Source of the DNA: an uncultured Christensenella sp.
GTDB lineage: Bacteria > Bacillota > Clostridia > Christensenellales > UBA3700
Direction of reading: 5' to 3'
NCBI GenBank assembly: GCA_910579785.1
Contig: CAJTVJ010000005.1
Span: 4,385-68,384, forward strand
Length of the DNA: 64,000 bases
Part shown: piece after piece, positions 1,193 through 63,861 of the stretch
How the letters are laid out: every line of letters begins with the position of its first letter
How positions within the stretch are numbered: the stretch's first letter is position 1
The notes under the pieces: model-generated
The model's input: the letters and a program-made list of their open reading frames with translations, nothing else
Database searches by the model: none
Told to the model about the DNA's origin: nothing
Position numbers and translations under genes: made by a program

Positions 1193-1534
1193 GGATGAGA
1201 CTTCTCCGCTCCGTTTCACTTCGGTCGAAGTGACCTGGGCGTTCACCGCGACTTTAAAATACACAATCACTTTACAGAGCAAAGTGATTGCTAAACTAAC
1301 AGTCGGGTTCCGCCCCTACCGACCAAACGAAAATGCACGCTTACGCTACATTTTGTCGGTACTTATTTAACTCGTTGAGACCTCTCCGCGTAGGGCGTAA
1401 GGAGCGGAGCGACGGCATAGCGAGCAAGCAGGTGCGTCTCGTGCGAGCGTCGGTGACGATTATACCCCAAACTCGTAATTATATAGTCATTTCGACTGAA
1501 ACGCAGTGGAATGGAGAAATCTAATCCTTGTGAA
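1193..1534. repeat. Mosaic intergenic repeat cluster A: hairpin unit (CT/AG) + K module + hairpin with L insert (CC) + reverse hairpin (TT/AA)
   Basis: Units: H 1193-1235 GAGACTTCTCCGC...GTCGAAGTGACC; K 1237-1366 (AAAATACACAATCACTT...CATTTTGTCGGTACTT); H-L 1367-1470; reverse H 1485-1534. The same modules recur at 10 other loci in this window. Confidence 0.9.
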
Positions 1535-8954: not shown

Positions 8955-8976
8955 AACTTCTCCCTATTATTAAAAA

Positions 8977-9178
8977 GATTAGATTTCTCCGCTACGCTAA
9001 CGCTACATTTTGTCGTTACTTATTTAATTCGTTGAGATTTCTCCGCTTCACTTCGTTTCGGTCGAAATGACTTAAAGTTTGATTATCTAAAAGCAAAATA
9101 TGGTCACCTCGACCGCAGCGGAGGTCTCAACAAATTGAATAAGTGATTGTGTATTTTAAAGTCGCGGTAAACGTCCAA
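8977..9178. repeat. Mosaic repeat cluster B: partial arm + K tail + hairpin (TT/AA) + linker + reverse hairpin (CC/GG) + reverse truncated K head
   Basis: H 9024-9072 GAGATTTCTCCGCTTCACTTCGTTTCGGTCGAAATGACT; reverse H 9098-9135 GGTCACCTCGACCGCAGCGGAGGTCTC; K fragments 8993-9024 and 9136-9178. Confidence 0.9.
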
Positions 9179-9179
9179 G

Positions 9180-9845
9180 TCATTTCTCCAACAAACGTCC
9201 GATTACATAACCTGCGATCTTAATTCCGCTTAAAGGCGGAATATAACTGATACTGCCAACGCCGTCGCAAACAATCGCAGGCGACTTTGTATAGCATATA
9301 TCCAAATTCTTTATGCCCCTGTCTTTGAGCGCTTTGCGGAGTTTCTTGGCAAGCGGATCGTAACTTGTCTTAAATATATCGCATATCTCAAAATCGCAAA
9401 GTTCTACTCTGTTGCCTGCTCCGCCTGCGCTTATGATATCAAGTCCTTTTTGTTTAGCAAGGCATATAAGTTCCACCTTATCTGCAAATGAATCTATCGC
9501 GTCGACAACCATATCCCAGCCCATATCAAGCACGGACGTATTGTCTGCCGAAAATCTTTCGCAAATCGAAATAACGTTGCAATTAGCATTTATATCCTTT
9601 ATCCTCTGCTCAAATGCCTTGACCTTAGGCATTCCCAAAGTGGAATCAAGCGCGATTATTTGACGGTTTTTGTTGGATATATCGACCACGTCTTTATCCA
9701 TCATACCGATCGTGCCTACTCCTGCTCTCGCAAGCATTTCTACGACGTATCCGCCGACGCCGCCGACGCCAACAACGAGAACGCGACTTGCAAAGAGTCT
9801 TTGCAAGCCGTCGTCTCCGATAAGTTTTATTTCGCGTGAAAACAT
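9180..9845 (-). CDS. tcdA: tRNA threonylcarbamoyladenosine dehydratase (ThiF/HesA family)
   Basis: 221 aa with the Rossmann motif VLVVGVGGVGGYVVEMLARAGVG. The size and layout match TcdA/CsdL. Confidence 0.8.
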   Translation of the reverse strand: MFSREIKLIGDDGLQRLFASRVLVVGVGGVGGYVVEMLARAGVGTIGMMDKDVVDISNKNRQIIALDSTLGMPKVKAFEQRIKDINANCNVISICERFSADNTSVLDMGWDMVVDAIDSFADKVELICLAKQKGLDIISAGGAGNRVELCDFEICDIFKTSYDPLAKKLRKALKDRGIKNLDICYTKSPAIVCDGVGSISYIPPLSGIKIAGYVIGRLLEK

Positions 9846-9846
9846 A

Positions 9847-11640
9847 TCAATCCTTCTTCTCGTCGAACTTTATTGCAAGTTCTTTAAGCTGTTTGTCTTC
9901 GACAGGCGAAGGCGCACCCGACATTAGACACGACGCGTTCTGCACCTTCGGGAACGCAATTACGTCCTTAATATTGTCCGTGCCTGTTACAAGCATAGTC
10001 AGTCTATCTAGACCAAACGCAAGTCCGCCGTGCGGAGGCGCGCCATACTTGAATGCCTCTACGAAAAATCCAAATCTCTCCTCAATATCCTCTTGGGTAA
10101 AGCCCAGGATTGAGAAAATCTTTTCTTGCATGAGAGGATCGTGTATACGTATACTTCCGCCGCCTGCTTCCTGCCCGTTGATGACCATATCGTATGCGTT
10201 GCTGCGTACTTTGAGAGGGTCGGTGTCAAGAAGAGGTATATCCTCAACGATCGCGCTGGTAAACGGATGGTGCACAGCGTAGTATCTGCCGTCTTCCTCC
10301 GAATATTCCAGAAGCGGGAAGTCAACTACCCAAAGGAAGTCAAACTTGCTCTTGTCATACAACTCGTATTTGTCTGCAATATGACATCTCAATGCGCCCA
10401 GCGAATCAAACACGACTTTGTTCTTGTCTGCAACAAAGAAGAGTATGTCGCCCTTTTGAGCGTCCATTGTCTCAAATATCGCCTTTTGTTCCTCTTCGCT
10501 CAAAAATTTGAGTATCGACGACGTGATACTTCCGTCTTCTCTAAACATTGCATACGCCAAGCCCTTTGCCCCATAGCTCTTGACAAACTCTCCGCAAGCG
10601 TCAACTTCTTTTCTCGTCATCTTTGAGCAAAGTCCTTTGGCATTTATCGCCCTTACGCTTCCGCCGCCTGCGACGGCATTTGTAAATACGGAAAATCCGC
10701 AGTCCTTGGCTATATCCGATAAATCTTTAAGCTGCATATCAAAACGGGTATCAGGCTTGTCGCTTCCCCATTTCTCCATAGCCTCGCTATACGGTATCCG
10801 CCTAAACTTCTCATTAAGCTCCATACCGAGGCACTCTTTGAATACCGCCTTGATAAGTCCTTCTGCGACGTTCATGACTTGCTCGTTGTCCTCGACGTAG
10901 CTCATCTCCATATCTATCTGCGAAAACTCGGGCTGACGGTTGGCTCTCAAATCTTCGTCGCGGAAACACTTGGCGATCTGATAATATCTGTCCATACCGG
11001 CAATCATAAGCAACTGTTTGAAGAGCTGCGGAGACTGAGGAAGAGCGTAGAACTCTCCATTGTGCAGTCTTGACGGCACCAAGTAATCGCGCGCGCCTTC
11101 GGGAGTAGACTTGCCCAAAAACGGAGTCTCTATCTCCAAAAAGCCGTTGTCGGAAAGATAATTGCGTACCACTCTCGTTATTTTGTCTCTCATAACAAGC
11201 TTGGATTGCAACGCGCTTCTGCGCAGGTCTAAATATCTGTATTTAAGTCTCAACGGCTCGCCTACCTTTATATCCTCTGTGATAACAAACGGCGTTACGT
11301 CAGCCTCAGACAAAATCTTCAAGTCGTGCGCAAGTATCTCCACCTCGCCCGTAGGCATATTCTTATTTATGTTGCTGCCTCTGCTTCTCACCTTGCCTGT
11401 GACTGCGATCACGTACTCGTTGCGTATCGTCGTAGCCTTGTCAAATATTGCCTTATCGACTTGATCGTCAAAAGCAACCTGCACCACTCCGCCTATATCT
11501 CTCAAATCTATGAAGAGCAAATTGCCGAGATTGCGATATTTCGCAACAAATCCCATGACGGTGACTTGCTTGTCAATATCGGCTGCGCGGAGCTGTCCGC
11601 ATTTGTGAGTTCTCTCTAAGCCGTTTAAAAAATCTACCAT
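9847..11640 (-). CDS. aspS: Aspartate--tRNA ligase
   Basis: 597 aa with class IIb motifs (FRDEDLRADRQPEF-like CFRDEDLRANRQPEFSQID, GGGSIRIH, GLDRL). Confidence 0.97.
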   Translation of the reverse strand: MVDFLNGLERTHKCGQLRAADIDKQVTVMGFVAKYRNLGNLLFIDLRDIGGVVQVAFDDQVDKAIFDKATTIRNEYVIAVTGKVRSRGSNINKNMPTGEVEILAHDLKILSEADVTPFVITEDIKVGEPLRLKYRYLDLRRSALQSKLVMRDKITRVVRNYLSDNGFLEIETPFLGKSTPEGARDYLVPSRLHNGEFYALPQSPQLFKQLLMIAGMDRYYQIAKCFRDEDLRANRQPEFSQIDMEMSYVEDNEQVMNVAEGLIKAVFKECLGMELNEKFRRIPYSEAMEKWGSDKPDTRFDMQLKDLSDIAKDCGFSVFTNAVAGGGSVRAINAKGLCSKMTRKEVDACGEFVKSYGAKGLAYAMFREDGSITSSILKFLSEEEQKAIFETMDAQKGDILFFVADKNKVVFDSLGALRCHIADKYELYDKSKFDFLWVVDFPLLEYSEEDGRYYAVHHPFTSAIVEDIPLLDTDPLKVRSNAYDMVINGQEAGGGSIRIHDPLMQEKIFSILGFTQEDIEERFGFFVEAFKYGAPPHGGLAFGLDRLTMLVTGTDNIKDVIAFPKVQNASCLMSGAPSPVEDKQLKELAIKFDEKKD

Positions 11641-25893: not shown

Positions 25894-26430
25894 TCAACTC
25901 GATTAGACCTCTCCGCGTAGGGCGTAAGGAGCGAAGCGACGGAATAGCGAGCCAGCGGTAGCGTCTTGGGCGAGCGTCGGTGACGATTATATCCCAAGTA
26001 ATAGAATCTTATATTAAAATACACAATCACTTAGCAAAGCAAACTAATTGATAATCATACAGTCGTACTGACCAAACGAAAAGGCACGCTTACGCTACAT
26101 TTTGTCGGTACTTTTCAATTCGATTAGACCTCTCCGCGTTGGTCGAGGTGACTAGATATGTCAAAACATAAGTCATTTCGACCGTAGTGTAACGAAGCGG
26201 AGAAATCTCAACGAGTTAAAACAGTATGGTCACTTCGAGCGTAGTCGAGAAGTCTCAACGAGTTGAAAAACAAGCGGATGAGATTTCTCCGTTACAGTCG
26301 AAATGACATAACTTACGTAAAGTTGACGGTCGTAGTGGATATGTAACTTCGGTCGAGGTGACCATATTTTACTTATAGCTAACCAAACTTTAAGTCATTT
26401 CAGCGTAGTCGAGAAGTCTCATCCACTTCA
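25894..26430. repeat. Mosaic repeat cluster D (largest): H-L (CC) + linker + K + six further hairpin units or fragments in mixed orientation
   Basis: Units: H-L 25894-25997; K 26016-26114; H CC 26115-26153; reverse H TT 26170-26220; reverse H CT 26225-26267; H TT 26274-26308; 3' arm fragment 26347-26367; reverse hybrid 26392-26430. Confidence 0.9.
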
Positions 26431-32665: not shown

Positions 32666-32821
32666 TTCACAAGGATGAGATTTCTCCGCTTCGCTCGTAA
32701 GGAGCGTAAGCGACGGCATAGCGAGCCAGCGATAGCGTCTTGGGCGAGCGTCAATGACGATTTACTCCAATACTTGTAAGTAAATATTTAGTCACCTCGA
32801 CTAATATTGAGAGGTCTAAGC
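32666..32821. repeat. Mosaic repeat cluster E: H-L unit (TT 5' arm, AATGAC 3' arm) + reverse hairpin (CC/GG)
   Basis: H-L 32666-32770 TTCACAAGGATGAGATTTCTCCGC...CGTAAGGAGCG...GAGCGTCAATGACGATT; reverse H 32789-32821 AGTCACCTCGACTAATATTGAGAGGTCTAAG. Confidence 0.9.
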
Positions 32822-33805: not shown

Positions 33806-34173
33806 GCTAAAATGTACGCTTGCTCAATATTTTATCGGTACTTTTTTAAATCGATTAGACCTCTCCACTGCGGTCGAGGTGACTAAATTTTTTACTACAA
33901 ACACCAAGATTTGGTCATTTCGACCGAAGTGGAGAAATCTAAACCTTTTATTAACTCGTTGAGACTTCTCCGTTCCACTACGTTTCAGTCGAAGTGACTA
34001 ATCTATGCTTATAGCGCACCACACTTTGGTCACCTCGACCAACGCGGAGAGGTCTAATCATTTTTTTATATTTCACAAGGTTGAGATTTCTCCGCTACGC
34101 TATCGCCTCGGTCGTAAGGAGCGAAAGCGACGGCATAGCGAGGGGCAGATGCGTCTCGTGCGAGCGTCAATGA
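33806..34173. repeat. Mosaic repeat cluster F between smc and ftsY: K tail + five hairpin units in alternating orientation, the last with an L insert
   Basis: Units: K tail 33806-33847; H CC 33848-33884; reverse H TT 33911-33945; H CT 33951-33999; reverse H CC 34026-34059; H-L TT 34071-34173. Confidence 0.9.
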
Positions 34174-34212
34174 CGATTACATCTTATTCTCACAATTTCA
34201 CACGTAATTACC

Positions 34213-39692: not shown

Positions 39693-39846
39693 AAAGCACC
39701 TCGTTGAATTGGTCGATAGATACATTATAACATAGATAATTTGTGTTGTAAACGCTATTTGTCGACGTATTTTTTTGCAATATGTCGCTTTTACGACGCG
39801 ATTTCCAATTAGTTGGCTAGAAAATATGCAGTCATTGACTTTTTAA

Positions 39847-40026
39847 AAGGTTTAGATTTCTTAACTCGTTGAGACCTCTCCGCGTTGGTCGAGGTGACCA
39901 TATATTGCTTATAGCTAATCAAACTTTAAGTCATTTCGACCGAAACAAAGTTAAGCGGAGAAATCTTATCCTATTATATTTTCTACTCGTTGAGACCTCT
40001 CCGCGTTGGTCGAGGTGACCACATAT
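39847..40026. repeat. Mosaic repeat cluster G: forward CC hairpin, conserved linker, reverse TT hairpin, forward CC hairpin
   Basis: Units: 39861-39900 TTAACTCGTTGAGACCTCTCCGCGTTGGTCGAGGTGACCA; linker 39901-39927; 39928-39971 AAGTCATTTCGACCGAAACAAAGTTAAGCGGAGAAATCTTATCC; 39983-40026, whose 33-nt core CTCGTTGAGA...GGTCGAGGTGACC is identical to the first unit. Confidence 0.92.
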
Positions 40027-40049
40027 TACCTACAAATAGCTAAAAAATA

Positions 40050-40076
40050 GAAAAGTACGGCATTGCCGTACTTTTC
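40050..40076 (-). terminator. Rho-independent terminator downstream of the DUF885 gene
   Basis: 12-bp perfect stem GAAAAGTACGGC / GCCGTACTTTTC with loop ATT. On the minus strand it is followed by TATTTTTTAGC. Confidence 0.85.
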
Positions 40077-43582: not shown

Positions 43583-43636
43583 AAGGATGAGATTTCTCCG
43601 CTCCGTTACACTTCGGTCGTAAGGAGAGGTCTTATC
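43583..43636. repeat. Chimeric single unit of the mosaic family
   Basis: AAGGATGAGATTTCTCCGCTCCGTTACACTTCGGTCGTAAGGAGAGGTCTTATC. It joins a TT 5' arm and loop to the first nucleotides of the L module and then to a reverse CC arm end. Confidence 0.8.
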
Positions 43637-47465: not shown

Positions 47466-47927
47466 AAGTACCGACAAAATGTAGCGTAAGCGTGCATTTT
47501 CGTTTGGACGGCATTAGCGGAACCCGACTGCTAATTAAGCAATCACTTTGCTTTGCTAAGTGATTGTGTATTTTAATATAAGATTCCATTACTTGGGATA
47601 TAATCGTCACCGACGCTCGCCCAAGACGCTACCGCTGGCTCGCTATTCCGTCGCTTCGCTCCTTACGACCGCAGTGAAGAGGTCTAATCATTTTAATTTT
47701 TTAACTTGATGAGATTTCTCCGCTCCACTTCGTTTCGGTCGAAATGACTAAACTATGCTAATAGCACACACCAAACTTTGGTCACATCGACCGCAGTTGA
47801 GAGGTCTATTCGAGTTGTATTATACGGATGAGACTTCTCCGTTCCACTGCGTTTCAGTCGAAGTGACTTAGTTTTACACTTTACAAACTATATGCAGTCA
47901 ACTCGCTAGTCGCGGAAAGGTCTAATC
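47466..47927. repeat. Mosaic repeat cluster I: reverse K + reverse L-H (CC) + four more hairpin units in alternating orientation
   Basis: Units: reverse K 47466-47574; reverse L-H 47593-47689; H TT 47701-47749; reverse H CC (one mismatch) 47778-47817; H CT 47823-47869; degenerate reverse H 47894-47927, abutting the PfkB stop codon. Confidence 0.9.
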
Positions 47928-48826
47928 TATTTGACGTACTCGGGATAAAACTCGGCAATATAATTCTCGATATCGCGTCTATTTCCCCTATAAGGTCCCG
48001 GCGCCTCCATCTTGGTGGACACCGTCGCCGTAGCCCAAAGCAAGGAGTCGGGTATATTGCTTACGCTTCTTTGCGTGATATACGCCGCAAACGTCGTATC
48101 GCCTCTTCCGCTTCTTCCCGACAGATTTCTTGCGCGTATCGGACACGTATATATTTCTCTGCCGTCATATGCCAGCACCTCTGCGGAGTTGGTAATGACC
48201 ACCTCTTTGGCGCCCCACTCGTGGAGCATCTTTGCCGCGACAAATCTGTCCGTCTGTCCCGTCAGTATCTCAGCCTCAGCGGTATCTGTTTTGAGATAAT
48301 GTATATAAGGCAAAACTCTCTTCTTGTCAGCCCAATCCTCAAAATACATAGCGCCGCTCTGCTTGTCCGCATGTCTGAGCAAAGCTTGAACGTCTACGGC
48401 TATCTTCCCTCTCTTTGAAAGTTCAATCATCAAATCGCCGTCAAAGTCTCCGTATATCAAACCTGCAAAATGGTAGACGTCACAGTCGACGTCGGGAATA
48501 TCTTTGAGTTCAAAGGCGTCCCCTTGACCTATGCATGTGCAAGTGCGGCGTTCTTTATCCGCAGTATGATATTTATTGCGTATGGAAGTAGATTGCTTGC
48601 TTGGGATGTAAAATACGTCTTCTTTGTCAATGACAAATTTATCAAGACGATCTTTATCCTCAGGAGCGAGTTTTGTGACCACGCCGACTTTAAATCCGCC
48701 TGCTTTTGCGGCTGCGGAAGAATAAATGACCGCTCCGCCTACTTCGATTATCTGATTGTCAAGATAATCAATGTTGTAATCGAGAGAGATATGTCCTATC
48801 TCCAACGTGTCGTAATGTCTTTTCAT
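47927..48826 (-). CDS. PfkB-family carbohydrate kinase
   Basis: I prefer the start at MKRHYDTLEIGHISLD (ATG 48826-48824, AAGAGGAA RBS). Ribokinase-like fold signature, including the C-terminal GRGDTTFAAY anion hole. Confidence 0.8.
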   Translation of the reverse strand: MKRHYDTLEIGHISLDYNIDYLDNQIIEVGGAVIYSSAAAKAGGFKVGVVTKLAPEDKDRLDKFVIDKEDVFYIPSKQSTSIRNKYHTADKERRTCTCIGQGDAFELKDIPDVDCDVYHFAGLIYGDFDGDLMIELSKRGKIAVDVQALLRHADKQSGAMYFEDWADKKRVLPYIHYLKTDTAEAEILTGQTDRFVAAKMLHEWGAKEVVITNSAEVLAYDGREIYTCPIRARNLSGRSGRGDTTFAAYITQRSVSNIPDSLLWATATVSTKMEAPGPYRGNRRDIENYIAEFYPEYVK

Positions 48827-56786: not shown

Positions 56787-56925
56787 CTGTTTAGACCTCT
56801 CCGCATAGGGCGTAAGGAGCGTAGCGACGGAATAGCGTGCCAGCATGTGCGTCTCGACTTGGGCGAGCGTCGGTACTTATTTAACGTTGAGATTTCTCCA
56901 CGCGCTACGCTTGGTCGAAATGACA
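56787..56925. repeat. Mosaic repeat cluster J: H-L (CC) fused through GTCGGT to a K tail, followed by a forward TT hairpin
   Basis: 56787-56874 TTTAGACCTCTCCGCATAGGGCGTAAGGAGCG...GGGCGAGCGTCGGT; 56875-56925 ACTTATTTAACGTTGAGATTTCTCCACGCGCTACGCTTGGTCGAAATGACA. Confidence 0.9.
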
Positions 56926-63353: not shown

Positions 63354-63842
63354 TAAGTCATTTAGATCAAGCGAAGCGCGTGGAGAAATCTTATACGCTT
63401 ATTTATTTAACTCGATTAGACTTCTCCACTACGGTCGAGGTGATTATTCTTAGTAGTTCATAATCAAATATGGTCATATCGAGCGTATTCGAGATATCTC
63501 ATCCGTTTATCTTCTTAACTCGTTGAGACCTCTCCGCTGTGGGCGTAAGGAGCGATAGCGACGGCATAGCGAGCAAGCAGGTGCGTCTTGTGCGAGCGTC
63601 GGTGACATTTCTCTCCCAAATTTGTAAATATATGGTCATTTCGACCGAAGTGCAACGTAGCGGAGAAATCTTAACCTTTTAAATTTTTAACTTGTTGAGA
63701 TTTCTCGACTACGCTCGAAATGACACAGCTATGTATTAAGTTACGATTGCTAAGGATATGAAGCATTTAGTTTGGCAAGTTGTAAGCAATAATTGCTCAT
63801 TTCGACCGAAGTGTAACGGAGCGGAGAAATCTAATCGAATTG
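63354..63842. repeat. Mosaic repeat cluster K: seven hairpin units, including the only TA/TA subtype copy and one H-L unit
   Basis: Units: reverse H TT (degenerate) 63354-63396; hybrid H CT/GG 63397-63445; reverse H TA/TA 63468-63505 (GGTCATATCGAGCGTATTCGAGATATCTC); H-L CC 63514-63619; reverse H TT 63629-63676; H TT 63686-63725; reverse H TT 63793-63842. Confidence 0.9.
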
Positions 63843-63861
63843 CATAATAAACAAATCTAAA

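Follow-up and report, generated by a model that had tools for sequence, protein, structure and literature searches.

Introduction

E. coli BIMEs are mosaics of motifs, with extra motifs lying between the palindromic units, and gammaproteobacterial REPs carry a conserved GTAG head beside the palindrome. The pneumococcal BOX element and other modular Firmicute repeats are intergenic and combine a small number of module types whose order and copy number vary. In cyanobacteria, small dispersed repeats of 21-27 nt, which Elhai and colleagues reportedly described in Genome Res in 2008, are nested in hairpin hosts. The E. coli tyrT-linked repeats, each 178 bp in length, carry the last 19 nt of tRNA-Tyr. 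A REPIN comprises two REPs in inverted orientation with a short spacer between them (PMC3337134), and the REP, REPIN and BIME elements (PMC3116915, PMC3337134) serve as the comparison system for the repeats analysed here.

The window, i.e. the whole 64-kb stretch of DNA that was analysed, contains seven copies of a repeat unit, the L unit, together with short (S) and medium hairpin units and a second repeat module, X. Like REPs, REPINs and BIMEs, this family consists of short imperfect palindromes that occur in high copy, are strictly intergenic, form convergent inverted doublets, have a covarying stem and build mosaics with extra motifs between the palindromes. Unlike REPs, the window units start with GTCA, end with TGAC and have no GTAG head, and, distinct from REPINs, the L module alone has a conserved non-palindromic box that spans Clostridia families, as well as a tRNA-linked form. 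With its modules S, medium S, L and X the window is also BOX-like in organisation; BOX, however, lacks the tRNA-end mimicry of the wider AGCG-box family described below. As in the nested cyanobacterial repeats, a small conserved element sits in the loop of a repeated hairpin and in more than one host type, yet the L module is 55-150 nt long and has a variable region of its own. With moderate confidence, we regard the L unit as a module of a mosaic, non-autonomous, hairpin-associated intergenic DNA repeat family of the REPIN/BIME/MITE type.

Anatomy of the L units in the window

All seven L units of a preliminary description of this DNA were located, each in its reported place and orientation. 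Measured from the 5' arm to TGAC, L unit 1 spans 1377..1457 (+; CC/GG host arms; covariance-model E 1.9e-10), L unit 2 spans 25904..25984 (+; CC/GG; E 5.7e-13) and L unit 3 spans 32677..32758 (+; TT/AA). L unit 4 (34083..34174, +; TT/AA) has a longer 5' loop part, and its host part varies between strains. L unit 5 (47606..47686, -; CC/GG) is the sole copy in the opposite orientation, L unit 6 (56792..56876, +; CC/GG) has four extra internal bases (GACT) and a truncated 3' arm, GGTAC, and L unit 7 spans 63525..63606 (+; CC/GG). An eighth, truncated L-like unit at 43589..43634 (+) consists of a TT 5' arm and GGTCGTAAGGAG, immediately followed by an inverted CC-type arm. Next to L unit 6 (56792-56876) stands a short unit at 56889, in tandem and not inverted.

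Whole L units are 81-92 nt in length. The conserved insert of about 75 nt that had been claimed is a real seven-copy module, but the segment that is added relative to a short unit (GTAAGG...GCGTC) amounts to about 55 nt. Specifically, the 5' part of the unit is formed by the arm (T/G)AGAYYTCTCC and a loop part, the box reads GTAAGGAGCG-N(1-3)-AGCGACGG(A/C)ATAGCG and is followed by a short variable stretch, and the 3' part reads GCGTCT(C/T)G(T/G)GCGAGCGTC, then RR-TGAC. In L unit 1, the module (1397-1451) has GTAAGGAGCG-G-AGCGACGGCATAGCG as its 5' box, its variable region is collapsed, and the GCGTC box is present twice. The consensus previously quoted for the insert is correct, and its core lies far beyond chance: with as many as 3 mismatches allowed, window shuffles give an expectation of 0.1 matches to the 18-base core pattern. 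The sequence CGTCNNTGACG at the 3' end is palindromic.

Two host hairpin types, CC and TT, carry the same L module; the 5' parts are specific to the host, and the 3' arms match. As had been noted, GCGTC-GG-TGAC closes the four intact CC copies and GCGTC-AA-TGAC the two TT copies. The tracking of the 5' arm by the 3' arm holds insofar as the 3' dinucleotide matches in every window copy; it involves two states only, however, and is broken in another strain of this species, in which a TT 5' arm occurs with a GG 3' arm (L012 near 9793). Likewise, the linked switch from GCA/TGC to GCC/GGC inside the insert is present, but the inner L region has just three haplotypes across strains, so that the A-U/C-G/G.U pair of the window subtype, including its G.T (G.U) state, is suggestive but a matter of three haplotypes only. 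Both open reading frames named in the preliminary description exist, and a 1-3-nt indel shifts their frame.

The inverted ends left in the window L units are AYY/RRT only (3 bp), whereas the tRNA-linked relatives keep arms of 10-14 bp. Around the window copies a target duplication is not recognisable, whereas in relatives the flank is directly repeated over 14-20 nt. The flank that follows TGAC is also conserved, reading GATTATAYCCCAA at 1458-1470, 25985-25997 and 32759-32770. In gene sense this flank gives TTGGGRTATAATC, with a perfect -10 hexamer that lies some 7 nt ahead of GACGC and has no matching -35.

Hairpin hosts, doublets and the X module

The host of the L module is a hairpin of the architecture GTC-X5-loop-rc(X5)-CT, the units of which read GTCA...TCT / AGA...TGAC. 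The window contains 28 short or medium hairpin units, all in 11 intergenic spacers, and strict matches to the architecture number 26, versus 0.8 in shuffles. Hairpin-unit spacers include 8960-9186, 26087-26430, 33816-34064, 39833-40060, 47693-47935 and 63379-63860. The stem dinucleotides are Watson-Crick in 23 of the 28 units (CC-GG in 6, TT-AA in 11, CT-AG in 5 and TA-TA in 1) and imperfect in the other five. With four Watson-Crick stem states, the short hairpin itself therefore covaries. Medium and short forms swap at the same site between strains.

At least 12 convergent inverted doublets are present in the window, e.g. 33856+/33941-, 26125+/26209- and 63697+/63833-. The L unit forms the left member of three of them (1377/1523, 32677/32818 and 63525/63672): L unit 1 pairs in this way with a short hairpin unit at 1485..1523 (-), and similar S partners lie at about 32780-32818 (-) and 63634-63672 (-). 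Additionally, three L copies are accompanied by the X module of about 110 nt, which is found at 1254..1364, at approximately 25998..26114 beside L unit 2 and at 47466..47576 beside L unit 5. The X module has two internal hairpins, one of which is terminator-like on the gene-sense strand. The loop of the short hairpin contains the motif CGCT-N-CGCTC, the reverse complement of the box part GAGCG-N-AGCG, which suggests that the L unit may partly be an inverted elaboration of its host.

The window is chromosomal DNA of an uncultured Clostridia species. Its genes lie nearly all on the minus strand, its GC skew is negative along the whole length, and many of the listed ORFs start with TTG or GTG. 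The FtsY protein of the window occurs in 697 assembly-collection blocks, some of them from human-gut assemblies.

The AGCG-box family beyond the window

When metagenomes were scanned with the 18 bases specified in the box, at least 120 contigs matched, of which about 20, high-GC contigs, represent chance. The non-chance matches share (A/C)ATAGCG and, after a variable region of 10-110 nt, a GCGTC(A) box; they comprise at least 102 distinct modules in at least 87 metagenome contigs with 33-57% G+C. The 5' box is 27 nt long, near-invariant across many gut Clostridia, and contains four direct AGCG repeats. A hairpin, P2 (GCGATTG...CAATCGC), makes up the variable region of 35 distinct copies, and among these 35 relatives P2 undergoes compensatory change, with double changes in three of the eight lower-stem columns tested and 3-6 pair types at the upper pairs. 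On the box strand the P2 wobbles are four U.G versus one A.C, too few to decide the strand.

A covariance model built from the 35 outside copies alone and run on the window without filters recovers exactly the seven window L units, at E values from 6e-13 to 2e-9, the next match having E 0.11. In its alignment 'GC-NNNN-GC' falls on P2 as a remnant, which identifies the window subtype as a derivative that has decayed and has its 3' box in duplicate. The GC-NNNN-GC mini-hairpin noted earlier thus has the variable loop attributed to it (AGGT, GGTA, GATA, AGAT and ATGT all occur), but it aligns as the collapsed, 2-bp remnant of the P2 hairpin of the wider family.

In several other species the module lies within GAGATTTCTCC...AATGAC hairpins, as it does in the window. 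The junction is alike in all contexts: TC/TT precedes it, G follows it, and the setting is a T-loop-like TTCGA. A search of 44 related loci with all 4227 Rfam families, at gathering and at permissive thresholds, returned only tRNAs and one TPP riboswitch. The box has no match in viral contigs and, in plasmid and phage records, occurs only in one 'unverified phage' scaffold with tRNA-Pro-type units. This scaffold (L142; MT835800.1, 'UNVERIFIED: Bacteriophage sp.') carries tandem tRNA-Pro-type units at 1480-1671; the gene beside them reads as a bacterial metabolic gene, and we take the scaffold to be probably a bacterial contig. Literature searches for the strings of the box and of the hairpin arms gave unrelated primers only, and keyword searches for tRNA-linked or GIY-YIG-linked repeats gave nothing relevant.

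Linkage of the relatives to tRNA genes

Among the matches listed, 38 modules have a tRNA gene within 1 kb, and 29 of these lie downstream of it, with rc(box) in tRNA sense. Also among the matches listed, at least 12 nt of the adjacent tRNA 3' end stand directly beside the box in 18 modules. Eight isoacceptors are covered (Trp, Lys, two Thr, Leu, Arg, Pro and Val). In line with this linkage, TGG, the complement of CCA, is found at -19 to -21 in 44 of the 102 modules listed, where about 5 would be expected (3 positions x 1/64).

The tRNA-linked units are 140-210 nt in length, contain no ORFs and occur 1-4 in tandem. Each ends in a copy of the last 14-20 nt of its tRNA and has an inverted copy at its other end. 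In tRNA sense, the order of parts is a terminator hairpin, a 5' arm reverse-complementary to tRNA positions ~57-70, (ATTG)TCGAAAT-NN-GTGACGC, the variable region, TCGCTATTCCGTCGCT-N-CGCTCCTTAC and, finally, tRNA positions 57-76. A terminator in tRNA sense follows each tandem unit, and the tRNA gene is kept intact. The arms are wholly different between tRNAs and still complementary, with 12-14 of 15 Watson-Crick pairs in the best cases. Their mismatches are balanced, 25 G.T versus 26 A.C, a balance in which we see no indication of selection at the RNA level. In a terminator near tRNA-Arg(acg), the module lies at GGTTC|GGATTT, and a 15-nt direct repeat stands on both sides. The att-type direct repeat, which runs from the T-loop to CCA, occurs in the relatives only.

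These arrays resemble tRNA-targeting elements and the tyrT repeats in that tandem units lie downstream of a tRNA, end in a copy of its 3' part and leave the tRNA intact. Unlike those systems, the AGCG units are 140-210 nt long, come without an integrase, contain an inverted tRNA segment and share one box across eight isoacceptors. Since the Rfam scans gave only tRNAs and one TPP riboswitch, no tyrT-repeat RNA model matched.

Unrelated short units, containing 15-33 nt of the tRNA 3' end, also accumulate downstream of the same tRNA genes; in L075 (in tRNA sense, after two units), L115 and L110 (4951-4983) such units end in the same tRNA 3' end. The flanks of tRNA genes are thus places where several kinds of small elements gather.

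RNA-level signals

The preliminary description had proposed a structured RNA of about 100 nt. In the window, this proposal finds no support in folding, in Rfam or in promoter-like sites. With dinucleotide shuffles of four copies on both strands, the folding z of the L units is +0.45 to +1.9 for three copies and -0.5 for the fourth; that is, the units fold no better than the shuffles. No Rfam 15 family matches the window at gathering score, and none matches at E<5 around one L copy. In the two units scanned on the gene-sense strand, no sigma-70-like promoter site facing the unit passes. An own promoter for L was considered on account of the -10-like hexamer in the flank TTGGGRTATAATC and set aside, as no -35/-10 pair passes the scan. 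A tRNA or tmRNA gene was likewise rejected, since ARAGORN calls none of the units; the window contains no tRNA genes. P2, the only hairpin that covaries in the wider family, is reduced to 2 bp in the window subtype. The L insert is therefore not supported as a stand-alone RNA gene candidate in this window.

A structured RNA is possible for the tRNA-linked relatives. In such an account, a tRNA-linked rod hairpin with an acceptor-like end and an NCCA tail would be made by read-through from the tRNA and trimmed by tRNA processing enzymes, and the window L units would be relatives transcribed in operon spacers. We judge this account as a whole unlikely. It agrees with the tRNA-sense orientation of rc(module) in 29 of the 38 tRNA-adjacent cases listed, with the terminator after each unit and with the rod folds of the tRNA-linked units (z -1.9 to -4.6), and P2 covariation would likewise follow from it. 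The highly conserved 27-nt box contains CUCCUU, which resembles an anti-Shine-Dalgarno sequence, and six of the seven window L units share one strand relative to the sense of the flanking genes. However, a terminator also precedes each tRNA-linked unit, no promoter-like site is found in the two tRNA-linked arrays scanned or in the two window copies, and no Rfam family matches. Moreover, the closing arms have no G.U excess over A.C, the few P2 wobbles favour the opposite strand, and the window units have lost P2 and fold no better than shuffles on either strand.

Taken together, the DNA-level alternative that had been put forward beside the structured RNA, an ssDNA recombination substrate, fits better in the window as far as action on DNA is concerned, in view of the strain swaps described below, of the direct target repeats and inverted arms of the relatives, which recall small mobile elements, and of the balanced mismatches in those arms.

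Search for a partner enzyme

When all ORFs lying up to 2.5 kb from a module at the 87 loci listed are clustered, no recurrent neighbouring ORF emerges, and no MITE-type autonomous partner that shares the ends was found at these loci. The 18 window ORFs scanned contain no transposase domain, and neither tnpA nor tnpB is found near the modules. Integrase genes lie near 2 of the 87 listed loci, L058 and L118, within 0.5-1.5 kb.

These two integrase genes bear on the view that the modules are attachment-site debris, i.e. minimal remnants of integrative elements whose tyrosine recombinase targets the T-loop, with the AGCG repeats as arm-type integrase sites and the window copies as secondary-site or recombined derivatives. 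Such an origin appears improbable, even though it would explain why the direct repeats correspond to the 3' end of the tRNA, from position 57 in the T-loop through CCA, why tandem arrays restore the tRNA gene and its terminator, and why other short units with the same tRNA 3' end accumulate there (L075, L115). At the remaining loci listed an integrase is missing, the units of 140-210 bp carry no cargo, and the inverted target copy at the other end of each unit is left unaccounted for. In addition, the window itself has 7-8 copies in 64 kb that are hosted by hairpin repeats, with no tRNA gene.

With a conserved scaffold that has TTAC at its end, then some 20 nt of flank and a terminator, the module resembles a right-end guide RNA of the TnpB kind, and like IS200/IS605-derived elements it is hairpin-bearing and non-autonomous. 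It differs from them in that the flank of the box is not a fixed tetranucleotide, the direct repeats of the target are long and there is one hairpin instead of two. The Rfam IS605 and HEARO models have no match at the related loci. The idea of a TnpB-like guide RNA, prompted by the conserved scaffold, the 20-nt tRNA match and the terminator, was accordingly rejected, by the non-fixed flank, the long target duplications, the lack of tnpB and the lack of an Rfam model.

A GIY-YIG motif search of the window and all loci yields one real gene, at L106 2812-3138 (-), which is flanked by short hairpins in a contig rich in them. Two plasmids, one from Spirosoma (L143 243-320) and one from Planktothrix (L144 135-861), likewise have GIY-YIG genes with hairpins of this architecture on their flanks, and the GIY-YIG gene on pSymB of Sinorhizobium has no such flanking hairpins. 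The three flanked genes are small and come from three phyla. GIY-YIG may therefore be a lead for the short hairpins, perhaps as an autonomous or a targeting partner, and provides no evidence concerning the L module.

Strain differences at the L sites

In the ftsY-ylxM spacer, which holds L unit 3, L is present in 11 of 11 strains, four of which have a different L subtype and a different flank. Upstream of rplS, at the site of L unit 2, 6 of 10 strains have S, X and L units that together make up about 330 nt, and the other 4 of 10 have a single medium hairpin unit of about 95 nt; the boundaries of this block swap fall within shared arm sequence. Two further L sites are fixed in the strains compared. 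In one strain, an extra block of 171 nt, consisting of an inverted pair of short units and a spacer, lies inside the tail of an L unit (L013, about 11090-11260) and is bounded by a 20-nt direct repeat of the arm, CGAAGCGGAGAAATCTCATC. Across strains, the four window sites thus comprise two fixed sites, one subtype swap and one block swap, with no clean empty site for the module of about 55 nt alone. As the block and subtype swaps are bounded by repeat arms, they point to recombination between repeat units and not to clean insertion of the module.

Variation of this kind also bears on whether the box is a host-recruited protein-binding site, bound by a chromosomal protein and kept for operon punctuation, mRNA stability or chromosome organisation. 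In E. coli, the extra motifs of BIMEs bind IHF or gyrase. The four direct AGCG repeats, the palindromic 3' end CGTCNNTGACG, the high conservation of the box across taxa and the strictly intergenic position, often just past gene ends and terminators, would all suit a protein site. We nevertheless consider this role very unlikely: copy presence varies among strains of one species, the tandem amplification and target-flank copies of the relatives point to selfish spread, and no candidate binding protein was identified.

Discussion

Because the box recurs mostly in small hairpins that copy a tRNA end, the L module appears to be a small DNA element, mobile or recombining, rather than a folded RNA gene. 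In the reading as a non-autonomous DNA repeat module, the insert is a decayed member of a widespread AGCG-box module, which has a 5' box, then either a variable region or a hairpin, and finally a GCGTC box. Many Clostridia have this module in hairpin loops at a TTC|GA-like, T-loop-like site, the host hairpin most often being the last ~20 nt of a neighbouring tRNA together with an inverted copy of part of it. We infer that the module may have spread as DNA in the past through site-specific insertion or homing by a function provided in trans, which would prefer such hairpin loops as its target and leave the 3' flank of the target duplicated. In the window species, the copies would now mainly be reshuffled and homogenised by recombination between repeat units.

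Several observations weaken the reading as a DNA repeat module. No transposase, integrase or nuclease is consistently nearby, and there is no clean pair of filled and empty sites, the sole presence/absence case being the swap of a block of about 330 nt for one of about 95 nt. Conservation of the 27-nt box across taxa of 33-57% G+C would be equally expected of a functional RNA or a protein-binding site, and the P2 covariation of the relatives is compatible with a single-stranded functional form. In addition, the proposed insertion step gives no account of the origin of the inverted copy, of about 13 nt, of the target flank.

More tentatively, we propose that the AGCG-box modules might be undescribed, very small elements of Clostridia that home to T-loop-like TTC|GA loops and rebuild the 3' end of the tRNA gene beside which they land, together with an inverted copy of it, a mimic of a tRNA 'minihelix'. 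They would then be site-specific mobile DNA of a new kind, whose inverted arms derive from the target, or else an RNA that hijacks the transcription and processing of tRNAs, and the window L units would be a decayed offshoot hosted by hairpin repeats.

In the biology of this organism, L belongs to a mosaic of recombining repeats through which the intergenic spacers of a common species of gut Clostridia come to differ between strains, with consequences for assembly, strain typing and spurious ORF calls. The wider interest lies in a family that has a near-invariant 27-nt box and is tied to tRNA ends, with units that copy both strands of the T-arm/acceptor segment. If mobile, this family would be a compact example of target-adapted insertion beside essential genes; if transcribed, it would be a natural tRNA-scaffolded RNA.
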